Below are positions 4,070-52,288 of a DNA stretch of 53,717 nt, piece by piece. The notes below the pieces were generated by a model, which was not told the DNA's origin, searched no databases, and saw only the letters and a list, made by a program, of their open reading frames with translations. The stretch spans positions 62,001 to 115,717 of the forward strand of contig CAUYUJ010000293.1 of assembly GCA_963575745.1 (NCBI GenBank). Reading direction: 5' to 3'. The number at the start of each line of letters is the position of its first letter. Within the stretch, counting starts at the first letter, position 1. Made by a program: the position numbers and the translations under genes. The DNA is from Prorocentrum cordatum (taxonomy: Eukaryota).

Positions 4070-6439
4070 GTGGTCGATCCGGCCAGAAAGGACAAAGTGA
4101 TAATTTTGGATCGGTTTTGCTAAGATTTGAAAGATATTCGACCATTCATTTTGAGAAACCTGATTGTTCGCACCTCTAGACGACTTTAAGGTCCTCTGCG
4201 TCTTAACATGAGTTCTGTAGGCGCACTTTTACCATCGAAACACTTGTGGGAAACAACTTCATGTCGACATGACAAAAAGAATATTCAATTGTTTGAGGAA
4301 TGCCTCCAGAGGCACTCTCACGCGTGGAAGCAGCTCTACGAGATTCCCGGCGGTGATCACTCTGATCGGCTCACCAGCTCAGTAGACGCAAATTTACTAT
4401 CAAAACACTTGGCGGAACCAACCTCATCTCGACATGAAAAAATGAATCATCTTTCGAGAAATACCTCTAGAAGCTCTCTCTTTCGACTCTGAGCACTTTA
4501 CGCGTGGGAGGAGCTCTACGAGGTTCCCGGCGGTGACCAGGTTGACGGTTCACCGCCGGCGCCATTGGTCGACCCGAGCAGAAAGGACAATGTGGCAAGT
4601 TTTGGTCGGCTTTGCTAAGATTTGAGATATTTCATTATTCATTTTGAGAAAGCAGGTTCCCAGCGATGACCAGGTTGACGGTTCACCGCCGGTGCCAGTC
4701 TAGACAGATGAGCTATAGATCTACAGCAATGAGATATCACTAGCGCGTAGGATCAGTCTGGTATCAGCGCTCGGGCTGAAAAAATATGCGTTCTCTGCTC
4801 ATTCTTTTGACATAATATTTGGTTAGGAAGCTCTACGAGTCCCCCGGCGATAAGAAAGGTTAAGGGTTTACCGCCGGCGCCCAATCGATGAGCTAGAGGA
4901 ATTCCGGCGTGGGGTGGAGCTAGTACCTTGTAGAACTCTTCGGCGTCGATGAGCTAGAGGAATTCTGGCGCGGGATGGAGCTAGTACCTCGTAGAGCTCT
5001 TCGGCATCGATGAACCAGAGGAATTCTGGCGCGGGGTGGAGCTAGTTGGCCGACCCTGCCGAGGCGGACAAAGTGTTAACTTTTAGTCGGTTTTGCTTCC
5101 ACCTCGTACAGCTTTTCGTCATCGATAAGCTAGAGAGATTCCGGCGCGGGGTGGAGCTAAATGGTCGACCGACGAGAAGAGACAATGTAACAAACTTTGG
5201 GTCGGTTTTTCTACGATTGAAAGATAGTTAACCATTGATTTTGAGAAACCTGATTTTTCGCACCTGTAGTGGGTTATGTCGCGTCTGCGAGTCCAATTCT
5301 CAGGTCCGTAGGTGCAGTATTACTGTCAAAACATCTGGAGCAACCCACTTTGGATGAAAGCCGACACATTCTGATTTTTCGAGTTTTTCGGCTCTCGCTT
5401 CAGAGGCTTCCTTCATGTGTTCCGAGGAGCGCTGTGCAAGAAAAGAGCTCTACGAGGTGCCCGGCGGTGACCTGGTTGACGATTTACCGCCAGTTCCCAT
5501 ATTTGAAAGATATTTGCCATGTGTTTTAAGAAAGGAGATTTTTTACGTTGAGCATTTGCATATAAGCTTTACTCTGAGAGCAGCTCAGCCTTCCCGATGC
5601 ATTCTAGTATGAGTTGACTTCCAGGAACCGAGCTTATAAACATCGAAAAACATTTCAAAATCAAGATTTTAAGAAAATCTTCATTTTAATTCTCTACTTC
5701 GATTCTCAGCACTCTTACTGGTGCCAGGAGCTCTAGGAGGTTCCCGGCGGTGACCAGGTTGACGGTTGACCGCCGGCGCCCGTTTGCCGACCCGACCAAA
5801 AGAGACAATGTGGCAACTTTGGGTTGGTTTTGCTTTGATTTGGAAGATGTTTGACCATTCATTGTGAGACACCAGATTTTTCGCACCTGTAGTGGCTTAT
5901 GCCGCGTCTGCCAGTCAAATTCTCAGGTCCGTAGGTGCAGTATTACTATCAAAACATTTGGAGGAACCGACTTTGAATGAAAACCGAAAAATAGTGTTTT
6001 TTTCGAGTTTTTCGGCTCTCGCTTCAGAAGCTTCCTTCATGTGTTCCGAGGAGCGCTGTGCAAGACAAGAGCTCTACGAGGTGCCCGGGGGTAACCAGGT
6101 TGACGGCTTACCGCCGGTTCCCAGTTGGCCCACCCGGCTCGGGCGGACAAAGTGATAACTTGTGGTTTGTTTTGCTAAGATTCGAAAGATATGTGACCAT
6201 TTATTTTGAGAAAGCAGATTTTTGAGTTAAGCATACGCATTTAAATTTTGTTCCCCAGCAGCTCAGCTCTCTAGAGCCAGTTTCAGTACTAGTTCACTTC
6301 CGGAAACCGACTTTATGTTGATTCCGAAATATCTCACTTTGACGTTTTCCTAGAAAAGCTCCCAGAATCTCTCCGCTTCGATCCTGAGCTTTCTTATGGG
6401 TGCAAGGAGCTCTACGAGGTTCCCGGCGGTGACCAGGTT

Positions 6440-7684
6440 GCTGCTGTCCCTCCTCGGGGATCTCAGCGGTGGCCTGGCCCGTCGGTGGCTTCCTCAAGCC
6501 TGTCTCCTCAGGCTGCCCCCTGGGCGGCCGTGTGCGCGCGGGCGGGCCGTGCAATAAATTCGGGTACTTCGTCGGCTGCGACGACCTTCTCTCCTTGGGC
6601 CTACAGATGATAGGTGCTGGAGGCCAGCTCTGTTTGGCATCAGAAGTGGGACTGACTTCAACGCATAGGCCGCTGTCGTCGCTTTGTACTTGTTTGTACT
6701 GCCTGCTTGCGCTTTCTCCATTATTGCTCTTGCACACGTGTGTATTCTTTGACATTGAGGTACTTTGACAGTTCTGTGACATTGGAGTATCTTGAGATTG
6801 ATGTTCTCTGCATTGTATCGGCGTGCCTGTTTCCATTCTTTCTTTCTTTGAATCGTATCGATCAGAATTCAAGATACTTGAGTGCGTTATCAGACACTCA
6901 GTTATGCAGGTGATTCAAGATACTGAGTCCGTTATCAGACATACAGTTATCCGAGAGTTACTTCTTGAGTGCGTTATCAGACATTCAGTTATCACACATT
7001 TGACGTGAGCATACGACTCTTGTCTTACCGCGGGTTGTTACGACATATTTCGGACTTTGTGTTTGCGTTTACTCTTGCCATGCTGTCTGTGTGTGTGTCG
7101 GACATGCGCGCATGTTGGTATAAGAGCTCCGCGTGATCTTCACTTTGTTCGGAACAAGAGTTTTGCATGTGCCCACTCCCGCTCGAAGAGTGGTGGGTGT
7201 CTTGCCTGACTCTGTGCACAGTCGACCGCAAATTCGTTGTGTTTCACGTGCATGGTCTTTCAGTGGTGCTGAGACGGTAATCGCTATATGTGGTTACTGC
7301 ATGGTCTCGCATTACTTTGAAGTGTACTCGTCATTTTAGTTGTTAGTTTTGTGTTTGTCTCAGTGGTGTTGAGACGGTAATCGCTGTATAAACCAGTGGT
7401 TACTGTATGGTCGTTCACTGCTTCTATTCTCAGTGGTGCTGAGACGGTAATCGCTCTATGTGGTTACTGCATGGTCTCGCATTGCTTTTACTTCCTCTTT
7501 ATATTTTAGTTGTATTCTCGTGTATTGGCAGATTGTGCATATCTGTGCAGCTTCGCTGTTTGATGCACCTCTGCTTCAATCTTTGCAGCTTCGCTGTCTT
7601 CCTGTACAGCTTCGCTGTTTAGGTTCTCTGTGTTTAGGCCTGCTCCCATGGGAGCTCGAACCGGCCTTCGCAAAAGACGCAAAA
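6440..7684 (+). mobile_element. Site-specific retroposon-like insertion 1 (non-coding, ~1.25 kb) in a Helentron 3' hairpin loop
   Basis: Splits the hairpin at ...GACCAGGTT^GAC..., with a degenerate 9-bp TSD GACCAGGTT (6431-6439)/GAGTAGGTT (7685-7693). It has a 3' stem-loop GCTCCCATGGGAGC and a CGCAAAAGACGCAAAA tail, plus internal short repeats. Confidence 0.7.
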
Positions 7685-10333
7685 GAGTAGGTTGACAGTT
7701 CGCCGCCGGCGCCAGTTGGCCGACCCGACCAGAACGGACAATGTGAGAACTTTTGTTCGGTTTTGCTAAGATTCGAAAGATATTTGACCATTCATTTTGA
7801 AAAAGCATATTTTCACGCGTGGCATTTGCATATAAGCTTCGCTTTCAGAGCAGCTCAGCTCTCCCGAGGGAGTTTTACTATGGGTTCTTTTCCGGGAACC
7901 CAGCTCGTATTGACATCGAAAAATACCAGAATTGAGATTTCTTAAAAATTCATCAGCGAAGCTCCTGCTTCGATTCTGAGCACTCTAGTGCGTGCAAGGG
8001 TCTCTACGACGTTCCCGGCGGTGACTAGGTTGACGGTTCACCGCCGGCGCCAGTTTTGGACGCTACCAAGTTGGTCGACTCGGCCCGGACGGACATTGTG
8101 ATAACTTTTGGTCGGTTTTGCTGAGATTTGAAAGATATTGAACCATTTGTATTGAGAAACCAGATTTTTGCGCTAAGCATGCGCATGTAAACTTTGTTCC
8201 CAGAGCAGCTCAGCTCTACCAAGGGAGTTTTACTATAGGTTCACTTCCGGGAACCGAGCTCGTATTGATATGGAAAATTACAGAAATGAAGATTTTAAGA
8301 AAATCTTCTCCGAAGCTCTGTGCTTCGATTCTGAGCACTCTATTGCGTGCCAGGAGCTCTATGAGGTTCCCAGCGGTGACCAGGTTGACGGTTTACCGCC
8401 GGCGCAGTTGAGATTTTGAGAAAATCTTCTACAAAGTTCTCTGTTTCGATTCTGCTAGTGTGTGCGAGGAGCTCAACGAGGTTCCTGGCGGTGACCAGGT
8501 TGACGGTTTACCGCCGGCGCCAGTAACTTTGGGTTGGTTTTGCTAAGATGTGAAAGATATTTGACCATTCATTTTGAGAAACCAGATTTTTCGCACCTGT
8601 AGTGGGTTATGACGCGCGCGCCTGTGAAATTCTCAGGCCCGTAGGTGCAGTATTGCTATCAAAACACTTGGAGCAACCGACGTTGGATAAAAACAGAAAA
8701 ACGTGTTTTTTCCCCCCCCGAGTTTTCCGACTCTCGCTCCTGCACGTGTTCCGAGAAGCGTCATGCGAGAAAAGAGCTCTACGAGGGTTCTGGCGGTAAC
8801 CTGGTTGACGGTTTACCGCCGGTTCCTGGTCTAAAACCTTCGAGCTCTCAGAGAGCTCTCCGGGAATTTCTTCACTTAACTCGATCTGCCGATGAGTTCG
8901 AGAGCTCTTCCGCACCTGAATCAGAGGAAACTCATGAGGCGCGCCAGTCGAAGTTTCTAGACGCTTGCCTTGGGTCTGTTATGAGCGCAAACGTCAAATA
9001 ACTAGTCATACTTGTGTATTTTCTTGTAATGGAATTCGTTTCCTGGGCAGAGATCGACGTGCAGATGAGCTGGAGAGCTCTGAGGCACTGGAATGGGAAG
9101 ATAATCGTCTTGCGCGCTATTTGAAACTATGTAGACACCCGCGCTCAGTCTGCTGTGAGCGATCCCGCCGGAGTGTTTTTTGGCAGTACAAAGTGCCCGA
9201 TCGAGCGGAGATTAAGACGGCGAGCGGGAATGAGATCGAATATCAAGGGCAAAAAAACCTCGTAGAGCTCTTCGACATCGATGAGCTAGAGGAATTCCGG
9301 CGCGGGGTGGAGCTAGTTGGCCGACCCGGCCCGGGCGGGCAATGTGACAACTTTTTGTCGGTTTTGTTGAGATTTGAAAGGTATTTGACAATTCATTTGG
9401 AGAAACCAGATTTTTGCGCCAAAGAGACAGTGTGGTGACCTGGGGACTGTTTTCCTAAGATTCCAAAGATATTTGACCACTCATTTTGAGAAACCAGATT
9501 TTTCGCACCTGTAGTGGGTTATGCCGCGTCTACCAGTCAAATTCGCAGGTTCGTAGGTGCAGTATTATTATTATGACACTTGGAGGAACCGACTCTGGTT
9601 TGAGTCATCTTGACACGCGTTGACGGTTTTCTGTACTTATCTCGAGATTTAGGAGAGCTACAGAGTTTTTACTTGCAGAAACTGATCCAGAATCATCAGT
9701 CGTGTCTGTTGTATCCAGATGTCTGAACGCGGTGCTACTCGAGCCTGGCCCGCAAAACTAGTCCTATTCTTCGAGTCATTTTGACGAGAGCTGTCGGTTT
9801 TCTGTACTTAACTGAAGATTTAGAAGAGCTACAGAGCTGCAGCAGACGCGTTCGTCTGTTGCATGGAGAGTTCTGAACTCGGTCTGCTACTCGATCTAGG
9901 TCCGCGAAACTATTCGTATTCTACATATTCAATTTACAGGCGCTGTCGTTGTTCTGTACTTAACTCGAGCTGTAGCAGAGCTACAGAGCTGGTACGCAGA
10001 GAAGCCGATCCATAATCATCAGTTGCGTTTGGCTGAAGCATCTAGAGCTCTGAGCACAGTCTGCTACTCGAGCTAGGTCCGCAAACCTATTTGTATGCGA
10101 CTGTTTGTTTCTCGAAATGATGGTGTTTTTTTCACTTAACTCGAGCTGCAAATGAGCTTGAGAGCTCTTCTGCACAGAAATCAGACGAAAATTATCAGGC
10201 GCGATGGACTGAAGTATCTAGACACTTGACTTGGGTCTGTTATGAGCACAGACGCCGAAGAACTATTATTATTTTGCTATTTTTCGACTTGGTCTATTTA
10301 GAGCTCTACGAGGGTCCCGGCGGTAACCTGGTT

Positions 10334-10558
10334 AGTAGGGCCTCCTCTCTTTGTCCAATTATATGGGAAGTAGTAGGGCGTTGTGCACAGGCACTCCCCT
10401 CCCATAGCAGTATCACTGACGCTGAGCTTTCGGGCCTCGAGGGCCTCTTGCGGGCCGCAGCCCAGGTGGCCCAAGACCTCCAGCTGCAGAGAGACTAGGT
10501 AGGCACTTAACGGGCGCTGGGGCGCTCGGTGCCTGGTCAGCCTCCCCCCCAAAAAAAA
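10334..10558 (+). mobile_element. Site-specific retroposon-like insertion 2 (225 bp, probably 5'-truncated)
   Basis: Perfect TSD AACCTGGTT (10325-10333 and 10559-10567), A-tail, and 3' stem-loop AGGCAC..GGGCGC-TGGG-GCGCTC..GTGCCT. Same hairpin-loop position as insertions 1 and 3. Confidence 0.8.
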
Positions 10559-11776
10559 AACCTGGTTGACGGTTTACCGCCGGCTCCCAGTTTTCAACCG
10601 AGCAAAAGTCAGCAAAAGTTCCGTCGAGATTTTTCTTGCCAACTGGCTCTACAGCGCGTTCGAACTGGCGCCGACGGTGAACCGTCAACCTTCTCACCGC
10701 CGGGAACCTCGTGAAGCTCCTTGCACGCGTAACAGTGCTCAGGATCGGAGCATGGAGCTTCTCAGGTTATTTATAGAAAAACGTCAAATTAACATTTTTT
10801 GGTGTCAACATGAAGTCGGTTCCTGGAAGTGAACTGATACTAATCTGGATTAGAGCTCTAGTCTTCTTTCCCATAATATTCGATCTGATTTCCGCTCGCC
10901 ATCTCAGATCGCCGGGGTATCTATTACTGCCAAAAAGCACTGGGGCGGGATCGGCTGTTTCGAGTTATCTCGAGAGCTGCTGTCGTTTTGCTGTGCCCGC
11001 GCTGTAGGAGAGCTACAGAGCTGATGCTCACAAAAACCGATTCAGAATCATCAGGCACTTTCATCTGCAGCATCCAAGAGGTCTGAAATCAGTCTGCTAC
11101 CCGAGCTAGGTTATTCGTATTTTACCGACTTTTTGGCCAGATGCTGTCGATTTTCGGTAGAGAGCTAGAGAGCTGGTGAGCACACGCAATCGATCCAGCA
11201 TCATCAGGTGCGTTGGTGTGAATCATCCACAGGTCTGAATCCGGTCTACTACTCAAACTAAGTCTGCGAAACTATTCGTATGCTGAGTTTCTTGGAGATG
11301 GTATGGGTTTTCTTGGTATAACTCGCGCTGCAGATGAGCTACAGAGCTGTCCAGCACAGCAATCGGAAGGGAATCATCAGAGGCGCTAGCGCTAGAGAGC
11401 TAGTTGGCAAGAACAATCTCGACGGACTTTTTGGTGACTTTTGCTCGGTTGAAAATTATGTTCTCGCAATTCAACAAGTCGTTAGAGCTCTAGTTTTTTT
11501 TCGGACCATATTCGATCCCATTCTCGCTCACCGTCTCAATCTCAGCTCGATTGGGTACCTATTACTGCTAGAAAGCGTCGCGGCGGGATCGGCCCTTCCG
11601 AGTCATCTTGACAGGCGCTGTCGGTTCTCTGTACTTAACTCGAGCTGTAGGAGAGCTACAGAGCTGGTGCTCACTCAAACCGATTCAGAATCATCAGGCG
11701 CTTTCATCTGAAGCATCTAGAGGTCTGACCTCACTCTGCTCCCGAGCTAAGTCCGCAACGCTATTCGTATTCTACC

Positions 11777-11777
<1 letters not shown>

Positions 11778-11852
<75 letters not shown>
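11778..11852. repeat. Poly(T) tract, 75 nt
   Basis: Direct reading; lies inside a ~180-bp repeat unit. Confidence 0.9.
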
Positions 11853-11853
<1 letters not shown>

Positions 11854-12549
11854 GTTGTTGCAAGATGCTGTCGATTTTCGGTACTGAACTCGAGCTGTAG
11901 AAGAGCTGGAGAGCTGGTACGCCCACGTAATCGATTCAGAATCAGCAGGCGCGTTCGTTCGAAGCCTCTAGAGGTCTGAACTCGGTCTACTACTCGAGCT
12001 AGGTCAAAGCTCTCCAGTGTGCGTGCCTCTTACCTCGTAGAGCTCTTCGGCGTCGATGAGCTAGGAATTCCGGCGCAGGGTGCAGCTAGTTGCCAACCCC
12101 CGCCCGGGCGAACACTGACAACCTGGTGTCGGTTTTTGAAGATTTTGAGATATTATCTCGTAGAGATCTTCGTTATACCCCGTGGAGCTCCTCGGCGTCG
12201 ATGAGATAGAGGAACTCTGGCGCGGGGTGGAGCTAGTTGGTCGACCCGACCAGAACGGACAACGTGACAACTTTGGGTCGGTGTTGCTAAGATTTGAAAG
12301 ACATTTGACAATTCATTCTGAGAAAGCAGATTCTTACGCCGAGCATTGGCATATAAGCTTTGTTCCGAGAGCAGCTCAGCTCTCTCGAGGCAGTTTTACT
12401 ATTGGTTCACTTCCGGGAGCCGACCTCATATGAACATCAATTAGCCTGACGAAAGACCCAACCATACGTAGTTGTGAATACCGCAATTGTGCATATCGTG
12501 GGGGCTCCTTCTCCTCCTCCTCCTCCTCCCTCCCTCTGGGACCGCGATT

Positions 12550-13890: not shown

Positions 13891-14010
13891 GTGATGACGA
13901 TGACGATGATGATTGTGGTGATGATGACGTCGATGATGTCGATGATGATCATGGTGATGACGATGGCGATGATGATGATGCTAATGATGATAATGATGAT
14001 GATGATGATG
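13891..14010. repeat. (GAT)n degenerate microsatellite
   Basis: Direct reading. Confidence 0.95.
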
Positions 14011-15179
14011 GGAGGGGGGAGGAGGGAGGGAGGAAGGAGGCGGGAACGCGGGACACCGTCTCTTCAAAATGAGGACCCAACACCACAGGATGGTTGTAAA
14101 AAAGCAAAAAGTGCAGATTTTAAGAAAAACCTTTGCGGAGCTCTCTGCCTCGATTCTCTGCATTCTCACGGGTTCAGGAGCTCTACGAGGTTCCCGGCGT
14201 TGATCAGGTTGACGGTTCACCGCCGGCGCCAGTTTTCTGACTTTTGCTCGGTTGAAAATGATGTTCTCGAAATTAAAAAATTCGCTTGAGCTCTAGTATT
14301 TTCTCCGTGATATTAGATCTGATTCCCGCTCGCCGTTTCAATCTCCGCTCGATCGGGTACCTATTACTGCCAAAAAGCATGTGGGCGGGATCGATTGTTT
14401 GACGGTAACCAAGGTAGACGGTTTACCGCCGGCGCCCAGTCTCGACGGACTTTTTTGTGACTTTTGCTCGGTTGAAAAGTATGTTCTCGAAATTCAACAA
14501 TTCGTTAGAGCTCTAGTATATTTTCTTGTGATATTCGAGTTAACACCCGCTCGCCGTCTTAATCTCAGCTCGATCGGGTGCCTATTATTGCCAAAAAGCA
14601 TCCAGGCGGGATCGGTCGTTTCGAGTCATCTTGACACGCGTTGACGGCTTTCTGTACTTAACTCGAGATTTAGGAGAGCTACAGAGCTACAGAGCTTCAG
14701 AAACCGATTCAGAATCATCAGGCACGTTGATCTGGAGCATCTAGAGGTCTGACCTCAGTCTGCTACTCGAGCTAGGTCCGAGAAGCTATTCGTATTCTAC
14801 CGATTTTCTTGACATATGTTTTCGATTTTCGGTGCTGAACTGGAGCTGTAGGACTACAGAGCTGGTGCGCCCACGAAACTGATCCAGAATCATCAGATGC
14901 GTTCGTCTCAAGCATCTAGAGGTCTGCACTCGGTCCACTACTCGAGCTAGGTCCGCGAAAATATTCGTATTGTAGGCTACTCGTATTCTACAGATTTTTT
15001 TTGTTCGAGACTAGTTGTTCGGCGTCTGCGCTCATAACAGACCCAAGCCAAGCGTCCAGATACTTCAGACTCGCGCGCCTGATGTTTTTCTTCTGATTTC
15101 TGTGCCGAAGAGCTCTCGAGCTGATCTGCAGCTCGAGTTAAGTGAAGAAATCCACCATCATGTCGAACAAATCGGTCGA

Positions 15180-24916: not shown

Positions 24917-24937
24917 GCAACCCACATGTGGCTCAAG
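24917..24937 (+). other. Degenerate relic DinoSL upstream of protease copy 1
   Basis: GCAACCCACATGTGGCTCAAG; paralogue of 30778-30796 with two extra bases. Confidence 0.45.
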
Positions 24938-25027
24938 CAAACATCTCTCCATTCGGCGCGCTGGCTCAGGGCGAGCTCTATGGATGGTTTACACTGGTAC
25001 CGCTGGCAGATTACACCTGGCGGCACA

Positions 25028-30193: not shown

Positions 30194-30777
30194 GATTTCG
30201 CAAGTGCAGTGTCAGCTAACCCATATCGAGTGGCACCATGTGGGCCACGCGCACGCACATGTCAACGTCTTCCCAGAAGCAATGGTGCACACATACTTTT
30301 ACAGCCAACAACCATCCTTCACCTTTCATTTTCAAAACCAATGCGCGCGCACTAGCTGAAATGATAAGACATCATCGCGTTTGCTTTGCCACTCTGTCAA
30401 GTGAGACGATGCGGGCAACGCGCGTGCGCATGTCGAAACCATTCAACAGTCATCGCGCACCTCCGCCGACTCTGTTAGATATCACCATGCGGGCCACGCG
30501 CATGCATCCCCGCGAACGCATGCCAAAATCATTTCACAGTCATCGCGCACCCGCCAACTCTGTCAAATGATGCAATGCGGACCACACGAGCGCGTCCCCA
30601 CGGGCGCATGTCGAAGTCATTTCAAGACCACTCTGGTGTTCAAGCATGTCTCATATACCGGAAGCCTGGCCTGGGGGGGCCCGGGGCTGCAACACACCAG
30701 GGGCACCCAGAGTAAACCCGCTTTTGGGGCCTCCCCGGAGCATGAAGAAGCTCCAAGAGGGTCCACCTGAAAGATTT

Positions 30778-30796
30778 GCAACCACTGTGGCTCAAG
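30778..30796 (+). other. Relic DinoSL upstream of protease copy 2
   Basis: GCAACCACTGTGGCTCAAG matches the last 19 nt of DinoSL (GTAGCCATTTTGGCTCAAG) at 15/19, ending 88 nt before the ATG. A weaker second remnant (TGGCTCAGG) follows. Confidence 0.6.
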
Positions 30797-30883
30797 CAAC
30801 ATCTCTCCATTCGGCGCGCTGGCTCAGGCGAGCTCCGCGGAAGGTTTACACTGGTACCGCGGCAGATTACACCTGGCGGCACA

Positions 30884-33223
30884 ATGAAAGTGGCCTCCGC
30901 GGCATTCACTTGCATAGCGATGGCTCAGCTCGGTGCGGCATCGACTTGTGGTGCGAAGGGTGCCGACAGCACTCCCTGGACATCGCGCAGCCAGCGCATC
31001 GTGGGGGGGCAGCAAGCCACAAGTGGAGAGTGGCCGTGGCAGGTCTCCCTCCAGACCTCTAGTGGGCACTTCTGCGGAGGAACGCTCATCGCCCCGAACT
31101 GGGTCTTGACGGCTGCCCATTGCTTTCCTCGTTCCTCGTTCTGGGTCGTGGCGGGCCTTCACCAACTGTCCCAGTCGGATTCGGTGGGGGTGCGACTGGA
31201 GGTGCAGCAGATGCACACTCATCCAAACTACGTCTATTGGGATCAGGGCTACGATTTTGTCCTCCTGGAGTTGGCCGAGGCGGCGCCCTTGAGCGACAAC
31301 ATCGGCCTTGCCTGCCTGCCGTCGGAGGACATCGGTGCTGGTGAAGAGTGCTGGGCCACTGGGTGGGGGAAGGTCGCCGGAGGCAGCATCCCTGACGTGC
31401 TGCAGGAGGGCGCTGTCACCACCTGGACCAATGCAGACTGCCAGTCTTACTGGGGCCTCTCAGGGATGACGATCACCGATGACATGCTGTGCGCGCAGGG
31501 CTCAAACGCTGGGGAGGTAACCGATATCTGTCAGGGAGACAGCGGAGGGCCGATTGTCTGCGAATCAGGCGGCAGCTACTTCCTTCACGGCGTCGTGTCG
31601 TGGGGAGCCGCTTCTTGTGGCGTGGAAAATTTCCCTGGAGTTTGGAGTCGGATCACTTATGGACGCGAGTGGATGGACGGGGTGATGGGGGACTGGACGG
31701 TGCCCCCGACGCCATCGCCCGCACCGACGGCTGCGCCGACAGCTGCGCCGACCGTTTCCCCAACAGCAGCACCGACTGCTGTGCCGACGGCAGCGCCAAC
31801 GATGGCGCCAACCGCATCCCCTACAGATGCACCGACAGCCGCGCCGAGTGCAGCACCTACAGCTGCACCGACCGCTTCCCCAACGGCTGCACCGACAGCT
31901 GCGCCGAGCGCAGCACCGACAGCTGCACCGACCGCTTCCCCAACGGCCGCTCCGACAGCCGTGCCGAGTGCAGCACCGACGGAGGCACCGACCGCGTCCC
32001 CAACGGCAGCACCGACAGCCGCGCCGACAGCAACGCCGACCGCTTCCCCAACAGCAGCACCGACTGCTGTGCCGACGGAGGCGCCGACTGTTGAGCCGGG
32101 TGTGCCGACTGCAGTACCCACGGAAGCACCGACCGCTTCCCCAACAGTTGCACCGACAGCCGCGCCGACTGCAGCACCGACGGCGGCGCCGACCGCTTCC
32201 CCATCAGTTGCACCGACAGCCGTGCCGACAGCAGCACCGACGGAAGCACCGACCTTTTCCCCATCAGCTGCACCGACAGCCGGGCCGACAGCAGCACCGA
32301 CCGCTTCCCCGACAGCATCACCGACGACTGCACCGACGGAGGCACCGACCGCTTCCCCAACGGCTGCACCAACAGCTGCGCCGACTCTTGCGCCGACTTC
32401 TTCGCCGACCGCTGCGCCGACGCCCAGTTCTGTGCACATGTGGGCGGCCATTTCGGGCCCGTGCACGTTGGACGGCGCCTGTGTGCAGAGCGCGAACTAT
32501 CCACAGGCTTATAATAACAACGAGGCGTGCACGATTGAGATCGACGCGGAGAACGCAGCACCGATCGTCGTGGAGGCTTTCAATGTAGAATGGTACTTCG
32601 ACTACATCGTTATCGACGGATGGAAATATTACAGCGGAAGTTCGGGTCCGTCTGGATTCACACCGTCATCCAGTATCGTGTGGTCGTCCGATTTCAGCGT
32701 TACGAGGAGTGGATGGAAATTTTGCGTACCAGTGTCAACACCTGCACCCCCTCCGACAACAGCACCAACGCCTGCACCGACCTCTGCGCCGACTCCCGCA
32801 CCGACAGCTGCGCCGACTCTTGTGCCCACTCCTTCGCCAACCGCTGCGCCGACGCCCGGTTCTGCGAGCATGTGGGGGACCATCTCAGGACCGTGCACGT
32901 TGGACGGCGCCTGTGTGCAGAGCCCGAACTATCCTCAGTACTACAGCAACAGCCAGGCTTGCACGATCGAGATCAACGCGGCGAACGCAGCACCGATAGT
33001 TGTGGAGTACTTCAATGTGGAGTCGTACTTCGACTACCTCCTCATCGACGGCTGGAAGACTTTTAGCGGCAGGCGCCGCCGTCCGTCTGGGTTCACACCG
33101 TCATCCAGTATTTTCTGGTCATCCGACTTCTCCGTGACGAGGCGCGGTTGGAGGTTGTGCGAGCCAGATCGCCGCCTTCTGGAGGAGGCCCCAGCGCCCG
33201 ACGAGCCAGCCTTCCTGATTTAG
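30884..33223 (+). CDS. Secreted trypsin-like serine protease (peptidase S1A) with Pro/Thr/Ala-rich stalk and two CUB-like domains, 779 aa
   Basis: Hydrophobic N-terminus [19 protein letters not shown], activation site [36 protein letters not shown] (Asp in the S1 pocket), (PTAA)n stalk, and two C..S[AP]NYP..Y.N...C...F.VE..FDY...WSSDFSV..GW repeats. Uninterrupted ORF. Confidence 0.93.
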
Positions 33224-34952: not shown

Positions 34953-34956
34953 GATT

Positions 34957-35830: not shown

Positions 35831-36860
35831 GATTCTGGATCTGTTTCTGTGCGTACCAGCTCTGTAGCTCTCCTGAATCTCGAGTTAAGTACAGAAAACC
35901 GTCAACGCGTGTCAAGATGACTCGAAACAGCGAATCCCGCCGGGAGACCAAATCCAAGCGTCTAGATACTTCAGACTAGCGCGTCTGATAATTTTCTCCC
36001 GATTTCTGTGCCAAATAGCTCTGAAGCTTAGATGCAGCTCGACTTCAGTCAAGGAGCGTCATACTCTGCTATTTTTCTGGTGCTGGAATTGGTTTTCTTG
36101 ACTGAACTAGAGGTGCAGATGAGCTTCAGAGCTCTTAGGCACTGCAATGGGAAAATAATCATCAAGCGCGCTATTTGAAAGTATCTAGACACCTGAGCTC
36201 AGTCTGCTATTAGCGCTAGGGCTGAACACGTATTCGTACTCTGCTACTTTCTTGGCAATGGTGTTAGGTTTCTTGGTTTTACTCGTGCCGCAGATGAACT
36301 ACAGAGCAATGGGAAGGGAATCAGCAGGGGCGCTAGTGAACTGTATCTGGACGCCTGAGATCAGTCTGCTATCAGCGCTCGGGCTGAAAAACTAATCGTT
36401 CTCTGCTAATTCTTTGGAGATAATATATGGCAAGGAAGCTCTACGAGTCTCCCAGCGGTAACCAAGGTCGACGGTTTACCGCCGGCGCCCAGTTGACCCA
36501 CCCGGCCCGGGCGGACAATGTGTGAACTTTGGGTCGGTTGGGCGAACATGGTGAAAGATTTGAACATTAGTTATAAGGACCGGTATTCTTCGCACCTGTA
36601 GTGGGTTATGCCGCGTCCGCCAGTGAAATTTTCAGGTCCGTAGCTGCAGTATTATTAGCAAAACATTTGAATGAGCCGACTTTCGGGGAAAACTGTAAAA
36701 CGTAATGTTTCAAGTTTTTCAGCTCACGCGTAAGAAAGCTTCCCCATGTCTTCCGAGCAGTGCCATGCGAGTTAAGAGCTCTACGAGGCTCCCGGCGGTA
36801 ACCTGGTTGACGGTTTACCGCCGGCTCCAAGTTGCTCTCCGGATTTTGGACGCTACCAAG

Positions 36861-39110
36861 TTCCCGGAGAGATCTCTGAGAGCTATAGGGTATTAGATTA
36901 GAAGCCGGACGGTGGTGGTGCCTGCCAGCAGCGCTTCAGAAGCGCTTCAGGAGAGCCCCCCAGAGCTCTTCAGGAAACCTTTCCAGAGTATTCCCGGAGA
37001 GCTCTTTGAGAGCTATAAGGTTTCACAATAGAAGCCGGACGGGGGTGGTGCCTGCCATCAGCTCATCCACGGCGGTCCAGAGTCGTCGCAGAAACTTGTA
37101 AAAGTTCGCAGCGTGTCCTGGAGCGTCTCCGGCACGCGTCCACGCGCGCCTGCACGCGTGGAGGCGTGCCTGGCAGCGCTTCAGAAGCGCGTCAGGAGAG
37201 ATCCTCACAGTTCTTCAGAAAAGCTTTCCAGTGTGAGTGCCTCTTCGCTCTCCAGGTTTTGGGCGCTACCAAGTGCATCTTTGCTGTCCGGGTTGTGGAC
37301 GCTACCAAGTTTTACAAGTAAAACTCTCTGAGAGCTATAGGGTTTTAGATTAGAAGCCGGACGGTGGTGGTGCCTGCCAGCAGCCCATCTTCGCCGGTCC
37401 AGAATCGTCGCAGCGACCTGTGTAAGGTTGCAGCGTTTCCGGGAGCGCCTCCGGCACGCGTCCACGCGTGCCTGCACGCGTGCAGGCGCGCGTGGGAGCG
37501 TGCCTGGCATTGCTTCAGAAGCGCTTCAGGAGAGCTCCCCAGAGCTTTTCAGTTCCGGGGGAGCTCTTTGAGAGCTATAGGGTTTTAGATTAGAAGCCGG
37601 ACGGTGGTGGTGCCTGCCAGCTGCTCCTCCACAGCGGTCCAGAATCGTCGCAGCGACCTGTTTGAGGTCGCAGCGCGTCCGGGAGCGCATCCGGCAGGCG
37701 TCCACGCAAGCCTGCACGCGCGCAGGCACGCGTGGAGGCGTGCCCGGCAGCGCTTCAGAAGCGCTTCAGGGGAGCTCCCCAGAGCTCTTCAGGAAAGCTT
37801 TCGAGTGTGAGTGCCTCTTTCCCCAGATAGCCTCTTGAGCTACATCGGGTTTTTCGAAGAGAAGCCAGCGGGTGCGCGTGCATCGCCGCACTCCCACGCT
37901 CCCCGCTCCACGATCCCCGCGCCGACTTGCCGGGGCCGGCAGCGTGTCCGGGAGCGCTCCAGGTGCGCCGCGCAGCGTGCCCCCACGCGTGCAGGCACGC
38001 GTGGAAGCGTCGTTGTCAGCGCTTGAGGAGCGCTTCAGGAGAGCTTTGCAGCGACCTTCGAGCCCCGCCGCGCGAGGTTTCCAGCGCCACCACGCACGTT
38101 TAACGCATGCGTCCAAAACCCGGAGAGCAAAGAGGCACTCACACTGGAAAGCTTTCCTGGCGAGCCTTGGGAAGCGCTTCTTGAAGCGCTGCCAGGCACG
38201 CTTCCACGCGTGCCTGCACGCGTGCAGGCCCGCGTGGACGCGTGCCGGAAGCGCCCCCGGACCAGCTTCTGGGTCCAGCAAGTCGGCGACGAGTGGAGCG
38301 CCGTGAAGAACCTGCTGACAGGCTCTCAGATTCCCGGAGAGCTCTCTGAGAGCTATAGGGTTTCAGATAAGAAGCCAGACGATGGTGACTGGGAGCCGGC
38401 GGTAAACCGTCAACCAGGTTACCGCCGGGAGCCTCGTGGAGCTCTTGTCTCGCGCAGAGCTGCTCGTAACACGCGGACGAAGTTTTCCACGCGTAAGCGG
38501 AAAAAACAGAAAAATACGTTTTACGTTTTTCATGCAGGGTCGGTTCCCCCAAGTGTTTTGATAGTAATACTGCAGCTACGGACCTGAGAATTTCATTGGC
38601 AGACGCGGCATAACCCACTACAGGTGCGAAAAATACCGGTTTTCAAAACGAATGTTTAAATCTCGCACAATCTTCGCCCAACCGACCCAAAGTTCCCACG
38701 TTGCCCGTCCGGGCCGGGTGGGTCAACTAGCTGTGCCCCGCGCCGGAATTCCTCTAGCTCATCGATGCCGAAGAGCTCTACGAGGTATGCCTGCCAGCAG
38801 CCCATCTTCACCGCTCCAGAATCTTCGCAGCGACTTGTAAAACGTCGCAGCGGATTCGGGGGCGCTTCCGGCACGCGTCCACGCGAGCCTGCACGCGTGC
38901 AGGCGCGCTAGGAAGCGAGACTGGCAGCGCTTCAGAAGCATTTCAGGAGAGCCCCCCAGAGCTCTTCAGTTCATCAGGAAAGCTTTCGAGTGTGAGTGCC
39001 TCTTTGCTCTCCGGGTTTTGTTCCCAGAGAGCTCTCCGAGAGCTAGAGGGGTTTAGATAAGAAGCCGGACGGTGGTGATGCTTGCCAGCAGCCCATCTTC
39101 GCCGCTCCAG
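36861..39110. repeat. Cluster of nested family F modules
   Basis: Repeated TTCCCGGAGAGCTCTCTGAGAGCTATAGGG..AGAAGCCGGACGGTGGTGGTGCC heads and GGACGCTACCAAG tails, with CACGCGTG palindromes. Confidence 0.8.
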
Positions 39111-39112
39111 AA

Positions 39113-40575
39113 TAACTCGTAGAGCTTCCCTTAGCTAGTTGCTGGAAGCTTAAGAGTAATTCCCGCGCGCTGGAGAGCTAGTTGGCAGGACAAATCTCGA
39201 TGGATTTTTTTCTGACTTGCTCGGTTGAAAATCTATGTTTTCGAAATTCAACAATTCGTTTGAGCCCTAGTATTTTTTCCCGTGATATTCGATCTGATTC
39301 CCGCTCGCCGTCTTAATCTCAGTTCGATCGGGTACCTATTACTGCCAAAAAGCGTTGCGGCGGGATCGGCTGTTTCAAGTCATCTTGACAGGTGCTGTCG
39401 GTTCTCTGTACTTAACTCGATCGAGCTGTAGGGAAGCTACAGAGCTGGTACGCACACGTAATCGGTTCAGAATCATCAGGCGCGTTCGTCTGAAGCATCT
39501 ATAGGTCTGAAATCGGTCTGCTACTCGAGCTAGGTGCGCGAAACTATTCGTATTCTTCGAGTTCTCTTGACAGGTGCTGTCGGTTTTCTGTACTTAACTC
39601 GAGCTGTAGGGAAGCTACAGAGCTGGTGCGCACACGTAATCGGTTCAGAATCATCAGGCGCGTTCGTCTGAAGCATCTAGAGCTCTGAACTCGGTCTGCT
39701 ACTGGAGCTAGGTCCGCGAAAGTGTTCGTATTCTTCGAGTCATCTTGACAGGCGCTGTCGGTTTTCTGTACTTAACCCGAGCTGTAGCATAGCTACAGAG
39801 CTGGTGCGCACACGTAATCGATTGAGAATCATGAGGCGCGTTCGGCTGAAGCATCTAGAGCTCTGAACTCAGTCTGCTACTCGAGCTAGGTCCGCAAAGC
39901 TATTCGTATTCGACCGTTTTTTTTTTTTTGTTTTTTTTTCTCTTCTTCTTTCTTTCTTCTTCTTCTTTTTTTCTCTTCTCTCGAAATGATGGTGCATTTC
40001 TCCACTTAACTCGAGCTGCAAATGAGCTTCAGAGCTCTTCGGCACAGAATTCAGAAGAAATCATCAGGCGCGCTAGTCTGAAGTATCTCGCTTGGGTCTG
40101 TTATGAGCGCAGACGCCGAACAACTAATCATACTCTGTTATTTTTCTGGTAATGGAATTGGTTTTCTTTGCTGAACTCGAGGTGCAGATGAGCCTCAGAG
40201 CTCTTAGGCATTGGAATGGGAAAATAATCATCAAGCGCGCTATTTGAAAGTATCTAGACACCTGAGCTCAGTCTGCTATTAGCGCTAGGCCTGAACACCT
40301 ATTCGTACTCTGCTACTTTCTTGGAAATGGTATTGTTTTTCTTGGTTTTACTCGTGCTGCAGATGAGCTACAGAGCTGTTCAGCAGAGCAATGGGAAGGG
40401 AATCGTCAGGGGCGCTAGTGAAATGTATCGAGACGCCTGAGATCAGTCTGCTATCAGCGCTCGGGCTGAAAAATTATTCGTTCTCTGCTAATTCTTTGGA
40501 AATAATTATATGGCAAGGAAGCTCTACTAGTCTCCCGGCGGTAACCAAGGTCGACGGTTTACCGCCGGCGCCCAG
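39113..40575 (+). mobile_element. Complete 1.46-kb Helentron-like element (family C) with internal ~180-bp tandem repeats
   Basis: 5' TAACTCGTAGAGCTTCC; 3' GGAAGCTCTACTAGT + CCGGCGGTAACC..GGTTTACCGCCGG hairpin + CGCCCAG^T. Subrepeats start at ~39378, 39559 and 39738. Confidence 0.75.
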
Positions 40576-42683
40576 TCCCTGCAGGAGCGCTTCCAGCACG
40601 CGTTCACGCGGGCCTGCACGCGTGCAGACACGCGTGGAAGCGTGCCTGGCAGCACTTCAGAAGCGCTTCAGGAGAGCCCCCAGAGCATTTCCGGAAAGTA
40701 CCTCGTAGAGCTCTTCGGCATCGATGAGCTGGAGGAATTCCGGCGCGGGGTGGAGCTAGTTGGCCCACCCGGCCCGGGCGGGCAATGTGATGACCTGGCG
40801 TCGGTTTTTTCAAGATTGAGAGAGATTTGAAAATTCGTTTTGGGAACCACTGTTTTTGTAACGTGAACTGTTAAAAAAAACGTGGAGGAACCGTCTGCGG
40901 TCGGGGTGTACTTCCCAAAGTGAGAATAGTCTCGTGCATTTGACAGGATAGAAGCAAGCTGCGCAACTGTAGTGTTCTCTGCACGTGTAGTAGGTGATTG
41001 CGCGTCGATCTGTTCAACTCTGCGGTCTTTAGCTGATATATCCGTAATAGAAATGCGGAATCAGTGAAATTTTGTTCGAATTATTTTTGAGTTTATATTG
41101 GCTTGATTTCTTCTCGGCATTTCAAGAATATCTTGTGAGTCCAGAGCTCTACAAGGGTCCCGGCGGTAACCTGGTTGACGGTTAACCGCCGGCTTCCAGT
41201 TCTCCGGGTCCTGGAGCGCCTCTTACCTCGTAGAGCTCTTGGGCATCGAGGAGCTAGAGGAATTCCGGCGCGGCGTGCAGCTAGCTAGTAACTCGTAGAG
41301 CTTCCTTCAGCTAGTTGCTGGAAGCTTAAGAGAAATTCCGGCGCGCTTGAGAGCTAGCAAGAAAAATATCGACGGACTTTTTTCCGAGTTTTGCTTGGTT
41401 GAAAATTATGTTCTCGAAATTCAACAATTCGTTTGAGCTCTAGTACTTTTTCCCGTGATATTCGGTCTGATTCCCGCTCGCCGTCTTAATCTCAGCTCGA
41501 TCGGGGACCTATTACTGCCAGAAAGCGTTGCGACGTGGTCGGCTGTTTCAAGTCATCTTGACAGGTGCTGTCGGTTTTCTGTATTTTTCTCGATCTGTAG
41601 GGAAGCTACAGAGCTGGTACGCACACGTAATCGATTCAGAATCATCGGGCGCGTTCGTCTGAAGCATCTAGAGGTCTGAACTCGGTCTGCTACTCGAGCT
41701 AGGTCCGCGAAACTATTCGTATTCTTCGAGTTCTCTTGACAGGTGCTGTCGGTTTTCTGTACTTAACTCGAGCTGTAGGATAGCTACAGAGCTGGTACGC
41801 ACACGTAATCGATTCAGAATCATCAGTCGCGTCCGCCTGAAGCATCCCGAGAACTGAACTCGGTCTGCTACTGGAGCTAGGTCCGCGAAACTATTCGTAT
41901 TCTTCGAGTCATCTTGACAGACGCTGTCGGATTTCTGTACTTAACTCGAGCTGTAGGATAGCGACAGAGCTGGCACGCACACGTAATCGATTCAGAATCA
42001 TCAGGCGCGTTCGGCTGAAGCATCTAGAACTCTGAACTCAGTCTGCTACTCGAGCTAGGTCAGCAAAACTATTCGTATTCGACAGATTTTTTCGAAATGA
42101 CGGTGCATTTCTTAAACTCAGCTGCAGATGAGCTTGAGAGTTCTTCGGCTGAGAAGTCAGAAGAAAATGATCAGGCTCGCTAGTCTGAAGTATCGAGACG
42201 CTTGGCTTGGGTCTGTTATGAGCGCAGACGCCGAACAACTAGTCATACTCTGCTTTTTTTTCTGGTGATGGAATTGGTTTTCTTGACTGAACTCGAGGTG
42301 CAGATGAGCTTCAGAGCTCTTAGGCACAGCAATGGGAAGATAATCGTCATGCGCGCTATTCGAAAGTATCTAGACACCTGAGCTCAGTCTGCTATTAGCG
42401 CTAGGGCTGAACACTTATTCGTACTCTGCTACTCTGCTACTTTCTTGGAAATGGTATTGTTTTCTTGGTTTTACTCGTGCTGCAGATGAGCTACAGAGCT
42501 GTTCAGCACAGCAATGGGAAGGGAATCGTCGGGCGGTAGTGACATGTATCTAGACGCCTGAGATCAGTCTGCTATCAGCGCTCGGGCTGAAAAACTATAG
42601 GTTCTCTACAAATTCTTTGGAGATAATATATTGCAAGGAAGCTCTACGAGTGTCCCGGCGGTAACCAAGGTTACCAAGGTGTC

Positions 42684-42704
42684 CCGTAGCCATTCTGGCT
42701 CAAG
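42684..42704 (+). other. Dinoflagellate spliced leader (DinoSL) exon, retro-inserted
   Basis: CCGTAGCCATTCTGGCTCAAG versus DinoSL (D)CCGTAGCCATTTTGGCTCAAG: 20/21. It is not followed by a GT donor or SL intron, so it is not an SL RNA gene. Confidence 0.92.
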
Positions 42705-43113
42705 AGTTCTACGAGGGTCCCGGCGGTAACTTGGTTGCAGCAGAGTTTACCTCCTGCTCAGCCAGGCCTCACCGCTGGGGTCCCCCTCGTCTCGAGCTGC
42801 ATTGTGCAGTAAGGAGTCTTTGGTTCCTCATACTGTACGCGGTGCTGCAGTGTCTGTTTTGCCTGAGTACCGTACACGTTCATTGATTGTCGGAGTGCGC
42901 ATTGACTGTTCAGTTTGTCGGAGTACCGTACGCTTTCATTGAGTGTCGAAGGCCTGTGCACATTCTTCGTCGTCGGATTACACATTGACGATCCAGATCG
43001 TCGGAGTACCGTTTACATTCATTGAGCTCTACAAGTATCGTACTCAACTGTCCATCTTGTATTGCCTGTGATTTGCCTTCTTCTTGTTGAGCGAATCCAC
43101 GTTTTATATATAT

Positions 43114-44277
43114 ATGGAGTTTGTTTCATCTGAATTGTCAGGCACGGATTTTGTTGCTTCAGATTGGACAGATACGGCGTTGTTTACTTCCGAGTTTCTC
43201 GCTGCTCGTTTGTCTACGCTCGAAGTGTGTGTTAGTGATCTATATTGCCGTGTTCGCCCTTCGTACGGAGGTGAGTCCCGCCTGCATGAGGGAGACCAGC
43301 TGTATGGGCATGGTGACAAAGTTTCTCAATCGAAATTGCGCCGCCTGCGGGCGAAACGTACCAGGTATCGTTTGTGGTCCACGGCTCGGGGGCCAGATTC
43401 GTCGTGCCTTGTTCGCGCGGGTATTTGCGCGCCGAGATATTATCGGAATTTCTTCTCGGACGATGCTGAGGAAGAGGAATGGGTTGAGCACCTTTGTGGA
43501 ACACAGACTGATATGGATGCTGTTGAATTGGCTGGCAACTCTTTGCGTTCGCAGTGTTCCGATTGTGGGGCTCAGACAGATCCCTGGGTTCACATTGCGT
43601 GTGGGACTCAGACTGATCGTTGTGTTCTCTTTGTTGGTGAGGAGGAGAAGGAGGAGTGTCATCGAGTGCGCGTTGATCGGGGTGATGCCTCTCTCAGAAT
43701 GAAGAGATATTGTTTCAAACGAGCGGAGACTATCGAGAGTTCAAAGTTGCGCACTTCAGAATGGCATGCGACCAACGGGAGTGCGGTGGAGAGTACCGCT
43801 GTTTGGAGTTCAGTTGATGCAGTCGGGAGTTCCAGTGCAGTCGGGAGTTCAACAGTTCGGAGTGCAGTAGGAAGTTCCACAGTTCGGAGTTCCGCTGATG
43901 CAGTTGTTGATGCAGTTGGGAGTTTAACAGCTGGGAGTTCTGCAGTTGGGAGTACCGCGGTTTGGAGTTCAGCTGATGCAGTAGGGAGTTCCATGAATGG
44001 GAGTTCTGCAGATCGACCAAGTGAGACACGCTCTGAGTGTCAAGCTGCCAGGGGCTGGGCCCTTGTCGGTGTCGATGTAAGTGCTCTTTGGCGTGAGCTA
44101 CACCGGCTCCCGAGACAGGAGCTTCAACGTAGGATTGAGGCTCTTAATGCATACAGGCTGCAAATGGGAATTGGAAGTTCCGAGGAGGAGGATTCGCAAC
44201 AGGGGGGTCCTCAGAGTTCTACTTCCAGGAGTGCATTGACGCGGAGCGGCAAGAAGCATCGGAAACGGCACAGATGA
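43114..44277 (+). CDS. Hypothetical 387-aa retroposon-borne protein (3x CG[TA]QTD, Ser/Ala/Val/Gly repeats, basic C-terminus)
   Basis: Single long ORF, sense to the SL and A-tail, flanked by UTR-like segments. ATG at 43114. No RT or nuclease motifs recognised. Confidence 0.6.
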   Translation: MEFVSSELSGTDFVASDWTDTALFTSEFLAARLSTLEVCVSDLYCRVRPSYGGESRLHEGDQLYGHGDKVSQSKLRRLRAKRTRYRLWSTARGPDSSCLVRAGICAPRYYRNFFSDDAEEEEWVEHLCGTQTDMDAVELAGNSLRSQCSDCGAQTDPWVHIACGTQTDRCVLFVGEEEKEECHRVRVDRGDASLRMKRYCFKRAETIESSKLRTSEWHATNGSAVESTAVWSSVDAVGSSSAVGSSTVRSAVGSSTVRSSADAVVDAVGSLTAGSSAVGSTAVWSSADAVGSSMNGSSADRPSETRSECQAARGWALVGVDVSALWRELHRLPRQELQRRIEALNAYRLQMGIGSSEEEDSQQGGPQSSTSRSALTRSGKKHRKRHR

Positions 44278-44470
44278 CATATTCATTGCTTGTCGGTGCA
44301 CAGTACACTTTCATTGACTGTCGGAGGATACGTCCGTTGACTGTTGGAGTACGCATTCATTGATTGTCGGAGTACACATTCATTGACTGTTGGAGTATGC
44401 ATTCATTGATTGTTGGAGGTCCATGACTATTGGAACATACACTCATTGATTGATAATTGATAATTCATTG
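44278..44470 (+). repeat. ~22-bp tandem repeats in the 3' UTR of insertion 3
   Basis: ATTCATTGA[CT]TGT[CT]GGAGTA units; related copies in the 5' UTR at ~42878-43030. Confidence 0.8.
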
Positions 44471-44720
44471 CATGGGGTCTTACCTGTGATAATTGTTAAT
44501 TTCATTGCATGAGGTCTAACTTCAACTGCATTGATGCTCTCTCTCGTTGCTCTTCGCTTCATTTGTAGCGGCGACGTGAGGCGTAGTAGATACTTCAAGA
44601 GTATCACGTTTTTCAGGGTACATCCAGCCCACAGGGGATCCCGACCGCCCTTGTAGGGCCCCGTGGTCGGACCGCAAACCGCAAAAAAACCAAGGTTGAC
44701 GGTTTACCGCCGGCGCCCAG

Positions 44721-51089: not shown

Positions 51090-51128
<39 letters not shown>

Positions 51129-51537: not shown

Positions 51538-51573
<36 letters not shown>

Positions 51574-51629
51574 GCACACACACGCACACAGACACAAACA
51601 CACACAAACAGACAAACGCAGACACAGCC

Positions 51630-51677
<48 letters not shown>

Positions 51678-52257: not shown

Positions 52258-52288
<31 letters not shown>

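Follow-up and report, generated by a model that had tools for sequence, protein, structure and literature searches.

A 53,717-nt stretch of the Prorocentrum cordatum genome (contig CAUYUJ010000293.1; hereafter, the window) raises the question of how three unlike pieces of DNA came to interrupt the 3′ hairpin of a repeated, Helentron-like transposon at one and the same bond. By comparing the window with itself and scanning it for both halves of the palindrome, we identified a truncated long interspersed nuclear element (LINE), a non-coding sequence and a copy of a spliced-leader-capped mRNA at this position. We think it probable that one or more target-specific LINE lineages land in the 3′ terminal hairpin of this abundant transposon and mobilise other RNAs into it as well. 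The core of this idea was already contained in the initial annotation, which proposed a nonlong terminal repeat (non-LTR) element aiming at the hairpin and carrying passengers; that core holds, and the annotation as a whole is supported in part.

Three insertions at one bond of the host hairpin

The hairpin of the host element follows the pattern GAGCTCTACGAGG-N3-CCCGGCGGT[AG]ACC[AT](A)GGTTGACGGTT[CT]ACCGCCGG-CNCCAGT. About 40 copies of it are present in the window, comprising 33 right halves with no more than two mismatches and about 10 degenerate ones recognised by eye. Exactly three of these hairpins are split, each directly after GGTT, at the junctions 6439|6440, 10333|10334 and 42672|42673. 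The occupied sites, together with an unoccupied host end, are as follows.

36781..36833, + strand: example of an intact, unoccupied host 3′ end, with the subterminal inverted repeat block GAGCTCTACGAGG, the hairpin and the CCAAGT terminus
6412..6439, + strand: left half of the family A hairpin, from the CTACGAG block to GGTT; 5′ target copy GACCAGGTT at 6431-6439
6440..7684, + strand: insert 1, a 1245-bp non-coding retroposed sequence
7685..7709, + strand: 3′ side of insert 1, with target copy GAGTAGGTT (7685-7693) followed by the worn right half GACAGTTCGCCGCCGG
10306..10333, + strand: left half of the family B hairpin; 5′ target copy AACCTGGTT at 10325-10333
10334..10558, + strand: insert 2, a 225-bp 5′-truncated LINE
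10559..10583, + strand: 3′ side of insert 2, with target copy AACCTGGTT (10559-10567) followed by the right half GACGGTTTACCGCCGG
42644..42672, + strand: left half of the family C hairpin; 5′ target copy AACCAAGGTT at 42663-42672
42673..44687, + strand: insert 3, with an extra target copy, a spliced-leader relic, a hairpin half and a body
44688..44713, + strand: 3′ side of insert 3, with target copy AACCAAGGTT (44688-44697) followed by the right half GACGGTTTACCGCCGG

Reading the junctions confirmed the insert coordinates of the initial annotation, together with its claims that all three inserts start after GGTT in the loop, share the orientation of the host and are flanked by duplications of 9-10 bp. 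The two target copies are identical at 7 of 9 positions for insert 1 (GACCAGGTT and GAGTAGGTT), at 9 of 9 for insert 2 (AACCTGGTT) and at 10 of 10 for insert 3 (AACCAAGGTT); in the latter two cases, the first two A are ambiguous with respect to the preceding A-run. All three duplications (9, 9 and 10 bp) run from directly behind GGCGGT to GGTT. The loop at insert 3 is one base longer and so is its duplication; therefore, both cuts appear to be anchored on sequence and not on spacing. The reconstructed empty sites align with intact copies across the junction, and all three inserts carry an A-rich or short-repeat 3′ tail next to the flanking duplication, as expected of target-primed reverse transcription by a LINE. 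Under uniform insertion, the chance of three hits on about 40 such bonds in 53.7 kb is approximately 1e-9 (6e-10 when computed with an inflated count of 46).

Self-BLAST shows no long unique segment in the repeat zones other than the three inserts, which are included among the 13 unique segments of at least 120 bp in the whole window. Three short unique segments in the repeat zones (40858-41133, 48454-48676 and 48925-49180) are internal, variable parts of host elements, and neither an A-tail nor a duplication was found when these three were inspected. A broken hairpin at 4346 was also tried as an insertion and rejected as a mutated copy.

A single ancient insertion, spread by duplication or transposition of an occupied host element, would also produce identical junctions and would mean that the three cases are not independent. 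Host elements are indeed amplified in clusters. However, the three inserts have no body sequence in common, being mutually unrelated and unique in the window; the duplications differ; and the occupied hairpins belong to three host families (A, B and C) that differ in loop, stem and 3′ flank, in line with what had been claimed of both inserts and families. We therefore regard this explanation as extremely improbable. That a repeated target was hit independently, at a single position and in a single orientation, is instead indicated by all three cases, by a parent copy recorded in insert 3 and by junctions in contigs of public sequencing runs, both of which are described below.

The assignment of the host itself is structural. 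The palindrome folds as DNA at −12 to −14 kcal/mol, a stability reached by 0 to 4 of 200 shuffles; the example at 36781..36833 folds at −12.7 kcal/mol, and none of its 200 shuffles is as stable. The G/A and C/T differences in the stem among hairpin families are compensatory. Host copies stop resembling each other a few bases past the hairpin, at CCAGT(T). At 14 places, the inverse block CTCGTAGAGCTC opens a conserved 5′ module, and it is the counterpart of GAGCTCTACGAG before the hairpin; the host therefore has subterminal inverted repeats plus a 3′ palindrome. In these features, with the palindrome near the end, and in forming families that have only their termini in common, it resembles the Helentrons and their non-autonomous HINE/DINE-1 partners, as far as these are covered by the passages on structural hallmarks in Thomas et al. 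2014 (PMC4067079). The host differs from Helentrons in that no Rep, helicase or endonuclease partner gene was found among the open reading frames (ORFs) of the window, and "Helentron-like" should be read as a structural label. Replitrons were rejected as the host type because they have terminal direct repeats, according to the description in the relevant part of PMC10288648.

Several further observations concern the host elements. A short host-type 5′ module (ACCTTGTGGAGCTCTTCGGCATCGATGAGCTAGAGG...) at 44714-44780 is wedged between the CCAGT end of the element occupied by insert 3 and the usual continuation GTTGGCCGACC; thus, host elements seem to insert directly at one another's 3′ ends. In one host-element family, a run of 75 T at 11778-11852 follows ...ctattcgtattc[gt]accg, and the other copies have 8 to 13 T, the homologous places being 39917-39939, 14995-15002 and 42254-42261. 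This homopolymer tract has thus been greatly expanded.

A truncated LINE, a non-coding RNA and a leader-capped mRNA

Insert 2 consists of the last 54 codons of an ORF2 (10334-10495), a stop codon (10496-10498), a 3′ untranslated region (UTR) of about 50 nt and then C7 plus an A-run, and its reading frame is open from its first base. Its peptide shares 87% identity with the C-terminal end of P0022, a metagenome protein of 228 aa, and matches residues 1406-1450 of a 1455-aa protein with a reverse transcriptase (P0024; 62% identity, E 8e-15). A full scan with P0022 yielded 119 proteins at E ≤0.001. The domain that matches P0022 is C-terminal in three long proteins (P0024, P0031 and P0064), all of which carry RVT_1, and a profile of the family matched LINE-1 ORF2p (1.3e-6) and an R2 protein (4.4e-6) in the PDB. 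A search for longer named relatives of P0022 produced only two short unnamed proteins, and the cluster look-up gave no names. Insert 2, which combines an ORF2 C-terminus with a UTR and poly(A) and whose relatives have a reverse transcriptase, is the 5′-truncated 3′ end of a LINE. Within the window, this LINE family matches at insert 2 only.

The N-termini of the long relatives match Exo_endo_phos with an E value of 0.0011 and 19.2 bits, which is below the cut-off of 24.5, and Exo_endo_phos occurs in 29 of the 30 nearest named Atlas clusters (top score 0.95; these are language-model look-alikes). GLQE, D..E, LDY and SDHA, which we take to be the catalytic motifs of apurinic/apyrimidinic endonucleases (APE), are invariant in all three long sequences. 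No endonuclease match was obtained in PDB sequence searches. An N-terminal APE-type endonuclease is thus probable in the long relatives. The C-terminal domain behind the reverse transcriptase shows weak matches of the RNase H type (a weak RVT_3 match and a PDB RNase H at E 0.15). LINEs with a restriction-like endonuclease (R2, NeSL and CRE/SLACS) were rejected as candidates, given the RNase H-like domain behind the reverse transcriptase and an N-terminus resembling the endonuclease/exonuclease/phosphatase (EEP) superfamily. The unseen autonomous element of the initial annotation can therefore be described further: it is a non-LTR element whose relatives have a reverse transcriptase and probably an APE-type endonuclease, but it is not wholly unseen, since insert 2 is its 3′ end. 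For the same reason, the view of the inserts as passengers fails for insert 2, which is the LINE itself; insert 3 is RNA-derived, as its leader relic shows.

Insert 3 is composite. Its first 64 nt precede the body and are made up of a further target copy, a relic of the spliced leader and a left half from another hairpin.

42673..42682, + strand: extra, imperfect third target copy ACCAAGGTGT, between the 5′ duplication and the leader relic; Tandem Repeats Finder (TRF) row 42660-42680
42683..42704, + strand: dinoflagellate spliced-leader relic, in which 42684-42704 is the 21-nt leader core with one mismatch
42705..42736, + strand: 32 nt of a family B-like hairpin left half with the loop AACTTGGTT, carried in as the 5′ UTR of the source RNA
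42737..44687, + strand: body of insert 3, with a 5′ UTR containing 28-nt repeats, an ORF, a 3′ UTR containing 23-nt repeats, and a tail
43114-44277, + strand: ORF of 387 aa, intact and uninterrupted

The leader match, made against the dinoflagellate consensus that is printed in the part of PMC2606063 dealing with it, is the sole one in the window and so inserts 1 and 2 have none; 0 of 100 shuffles give any. The spliced-leader relic shows that insert 3 is RNA-derived, namely, a reverse-transcribed copy of a spliced-leader-capped mRNA. It is also the only insert with the attributes of a dinoflagellate spliced-leader (DinoSL) retrogene, which are a 5′ leader relic, an uninterrupted ORF and an A-tail; the tail comprises two copies of ACCGCAA plus an A-run. 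Positions 27-86 of insert 3 match the left halves of other hairpins in the window. The presence of a hairpin left half behind the leader relic therefore shows that the source copy of insert 3 also sat in a hairpin. The parent RNA was trans-spliced at the AG just before the host GAGCTCTACGAGG block, 32 nt upstream of the landing site, and continued through the hairpin left half into the element, ending at the element's own tail. The extra target copy at 42673-42682 may reflect a template jump, or it may have been left by an intermediate generation that sat in a family C hairpin.

The 387-aa ORF has 20 homologues. The best of these is 93% identical over its full length and is labelled Prorocentrum cordatum, and another, from a transcriptome, shows 91% identity. 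Across ten family members, the N-terminal two thirds scarcely vary. Neither the ORF nor 12 of its relatives has a Pfam family, and no likeness to LINE proteins was detected for the ORF.

Insert 1 is a copy of a non-coding RNA with a tail of the insert 3 kind. No long open frame was found on its own strand, and its tail consists of two copies of the 9-nt unit CGCAAAAGA (7669-7686, TRF). When both strands of the window are searched, a pair of CGCAAA within 12 nt is present at two places, which are the ends of inserts 1 and 3, and nowhere else; single CGCAAA motifs number 17 on the plus strand and 14 on the minus strand. The tail likeness pointed out in the initial annotation is thus real, in contrast to the likeness of the GCTGCTG and GCAGCAG starts, since the 5′ ends of the two inserts show no significant likeness (191 of 500 shuffles reach their score). 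Their 3′ modules are weakly alike, with 21 of 500 shuffles scoring as well. GC stem-loops do exist at the 3′ ends, as annotated, but the last 100 nt of the inserts fold no better than shuffles (z −1.6, +1.1 and −1.0). Searches of 6000-11000 and of 42300-45000 against Rfam (E up to 1) returned 0 matches each, with no ribozyme or small-RNA head; the identity of any of the inserts as a short interspersed nuclear element was rejected accordingly, as no tRNA, 7SL, 5S or snRNA head was found in the two regions.

Further copies of the insertions were seen in contigs of four coded public runs aligned to 36400-46100, namely, X10 (poly(A) RNA-seq), X1 and X6 (RNA-like) and X4 (DNA-type), for which contig depth is a rough guide only. 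The body of insert 3 is covered by contigs of X10, X1 and X6, in which the flanking host repeats are poorly covered, and the reverse is true of X4, in which hairpin contigs reach depths of 1e4 to 1e5. One X1 contig (three rows of shared depth 434.4, taken as one) contains a relative of insert 3 that has 11 additional nt behind 44639 and is shorter by one base both in the A-run and, at 44692, in the loop. These differences indicate that another insert 3-type copy resides in another hairpin. The 11-nt insertion also occurs in single contigs of X4, X6 and X10, and the shorter A-run in single contigs of X4 and X6. Additionally, X6 and X10, runs of two studies, contain contigs in which the same right half is joined to another sequence, one that ends in ...CGCAAAGCCGC and an A-run.

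These observations bear on what inserts 1 and 3 are. Instead of chance processed cellular RNAs, they could be specialised non-autonomous retroposons, whose CGCAAA tail and 3′ module would be recognised by a stringent partner LINE; the 387-aa ORF would then be an element gene, like that of an ORF1-only element. The tail signature common to the two inserts, which appears a third time in RNA contigs, argues for this possibility, as do the weak likeness of the 3′ modules, the multi-copy ORF family with its 20 homologues and the finding of no fewer than two further copies or relatives within hairpins. However, the 5′ ends are unlike, the ORF lacks a Pfam family or detected likeness to LINE proteins, and no partner LINE with a CGCAAA tail was seen. 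We consider this a serious possibility, albeit one that falls short of an even chance, and it would refine the explanation by target-specific LINEs rather than oppose it.

Putative mechanism of insertion

On the basis of these sequence features, we propose a putative mechanism for insertion into the hairpin. The ORF2 of the LINE would supply a probable APE-type endonuclease, the reverse transcriptase and a C-terminal RNase H-like domain. The endonuclease would nick the bottom strand opposite GGCGGT|RACC (GGTY|ACC), in the stem, and the freed 3′ end would prime reverse transcription on the A-rich or repeat tail of the RNA. The top strand would then be cut at GGTT|GAC, at the apex of the loop, which would generate a duplication of 9-10 bp and a fixed orientation. 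We infer that the nicking by the APE-type endonuclease is sequence specific and that such LINEs copied inserts 1 and 3 in trans, the lineage responsible probably having CGCAAA-repeat tails and being distinct from that of insert 2.

A different explanation is that the LINE machinery is not site specific and that the palindrome is fragile or frequently nicked, by cruciform extrusion or by the host Rep, so that any reverse transcriptase could use the break, with the sheer number of hairpins accounting for the remainder. The hairpin is a stable DNA structure (−12 to −14 kcal/mol) with the site at its apex, it is extremely abundant, both in the window and in X4, and the endonuclease type is not firmly established, all of which would suit such a process. 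Nevertheless, the priming nick is located 9-10 nt from the apex, in the stem and on the other strand, and at the same base in all three cases. A nick of the top strand in the loop would prime the opposite orientation, which is seen in none of the three. Moreover, break-primed insertions usually lack regular duplications. We therefore consider a fragile palindrome an improbable cause of these insertions.

Several points weigh against targeting of the hairpin by specific LINEs. Of the 38 GGTTGAC motifs in the window, 34 are GGTTGACGG; because nearly all of them sit within hairpins, a preference for a short motif appears indistinguishable here from true recognition of the hairpin. The duplication of insert 1 is imperfect (7 of 9). 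No full-length LINE was found within a hairpin. The tail of insert 2 is C7-A10 and not CGCAAA; therefore, insert 2 does not identify the LINE that moved inserts 1 and 3. The call of a probable endonuclease rests on a sub-threshold Pfam match, language-model look-alikes and motifs. Finally, in 120 marine metagenome loci, 0 of 113 left halves were split, a result that we did not weigh against targeting because these loci are short contigs chosen by the right half, mostly with other loop variants, and are biased accordingly.

The metagenome data are informative about the host. The 20-nt right half occurs exactly in at least 124 marine metagenome contigs, in which only a block of about 60 nt is common to the copies. 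This end block, with the loop variant GGAAACCAGGTT, was observed in AT-richer marine contigs (L001-L120; e.g., L039 at 1040-1100 and 1441-1452, and L045 at 142-161), next to ordinary genes (pyruvate kinase, Glu/Gln-tRNA synthetase, RNase HII and MOSC), and L039 also has the 5′ block CTCGTAGAGC. These contigs indicate that the host transposon type is widespread in marine protists, with only its termini conserved. Viral contigs gave 0 matches to the full hairpin and 0 to the right half. The 7 matches in prokaryote genomes were taken as chance plus two contigs of one marine-metagenome-derived bin. About 9 of 133 metagenome right halves had no left half recognisable by eye, none of them with an A-tail plus a duplication, and the 32 longest ORFs of the metagenome loci did not include a reverse transcriptase. 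In two related contigs (L075 and L112), a long A-rich run abuts GTCCACCCGGCGG in place of the CTACGAG block, and it may represent a different insertion point just upstream of the hairpin.

The record in insert 3 leads us to speculate, tentatively, that landing in the hairpin is an expression strategy, in which the conserved host block upstream supplies a trans-splice acceptor. We regard this idea as rather unlikely at present. If it were true, every insert would be excised from read-through transcripts and leader-capped 32 nt before its first base, and movement from one hairpin to the next could sustain promoter-less LINEs and the whole gene family of the 387-aa protein. They would constitute a dinoflagellate counterpart of the elements that inhabit the spliced-leader genes of trypanosomes and nematodes.

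Relation to known systems and other features of the window

Target-specific non-LTR elements are well known, with R1 and R2 residing in ribosomal DNA (rDNA) and early-branched elements with a restriction-like endonuclease residing in spliced-leader genes. Both resemble the insertions described here in their strict, conserved, multicopy target, fixed orientation and reliance on read-through transcription of the target. However, the early-branched elements differ from the present LINE, which has an EEP-like N-terminus, a reverse transcriptase and an RNase H-like domain, and in contrast to all of these elements, the target here is a selfish element and not a host gene. Three groups of target-specific non-LTR elements are listed in the relevant section of PMC4640811.

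The closest parallels involve DNA transposons as targets. In the account given in parts of Kojima 2015 (PMC4494074), Tx1-Mar LINEs and SINEU share a target preference in the crocodilian Mariner-N4_AMi, from which trans-mobilisation was inferred. As in the present case, in which the endonuclease is probably of the APE type, APE-type LINEs favour defined positions in a DNA transposon, non-autonomous elements have the same target, and 5′ extensions and template jumps occur at the junctions. Here, however, the host is a dinoflagellate, the target is one exact bond in the terminal hairpin loop of a Helentron-like element, and one passenger is a spliced-leader-capped protein-coding mRNA; the likeness is one of target use. 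Tx1L of Xenopus laevis, which sits in the non-autonomous piggyBac element Tx1D (described in the same parts of PMC4494074), is likewise a LINE with another transposon as its natural target, but its target class and lineage are different, and passengers are absent from the description of Tx1L there.

DinoSL-bearing retrogenes, or "mRNA recycling", have been described in dinoflagellates, as set out in the pertinent portions of PMC6050394 and PMC5585692. Insert 3 is similar in being intronless, with a leader relic at its start and an A-run at its end. In contrast to these retrogenes, its landing site is base precise and common with a LINE, and its 5′ UTR records the same type of site for the parent copy. 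Our literature search revealed neither a report of such targeting in dinoflagellates nor one of a Helitron-type hairpin serving as a target, and no description of a retroposition landing site or of the element responsible in dinoflagellates. The kind of system is known; its novel aspects are the target, the lineage, the passenger mRNA and the record left by the spliced leader.

These insertions reveal to the base where retroposed sequences land in a dinoflagellate, and dinoflagellates are noted for forming retrogenes on a massive scale. The meeting of a LINE, a non-coding RNA and a leader-capped mRNA at one bond would tie retrogene formation to a definable LINE lineage, and one selfish element would have specialised on another at its most conserved part. 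With a defined target of 33 nt, the endonuclease can be assayed in vitro, and a marker system could be built on whether each of thousands of hairpins is occupied or empty.

The remainder of the window contains sequence of other kinds. The region 50900-53717 is GC-rich and contains long microsatellites of the (CA)n type; both of its strands carry overlapping open frames, and Pfam gave no match for a 569-aa frame in it. The GC-rich middle of the window contains two tandem genes with trypsin, PT-repeat and CUB domains (25415-27367 and 30776-33223). The sequence contexts at 28028 and 33883, about 5.85 kb from each other, are identical, which is what a dinoflagellate tandem gene array would be expected to show.

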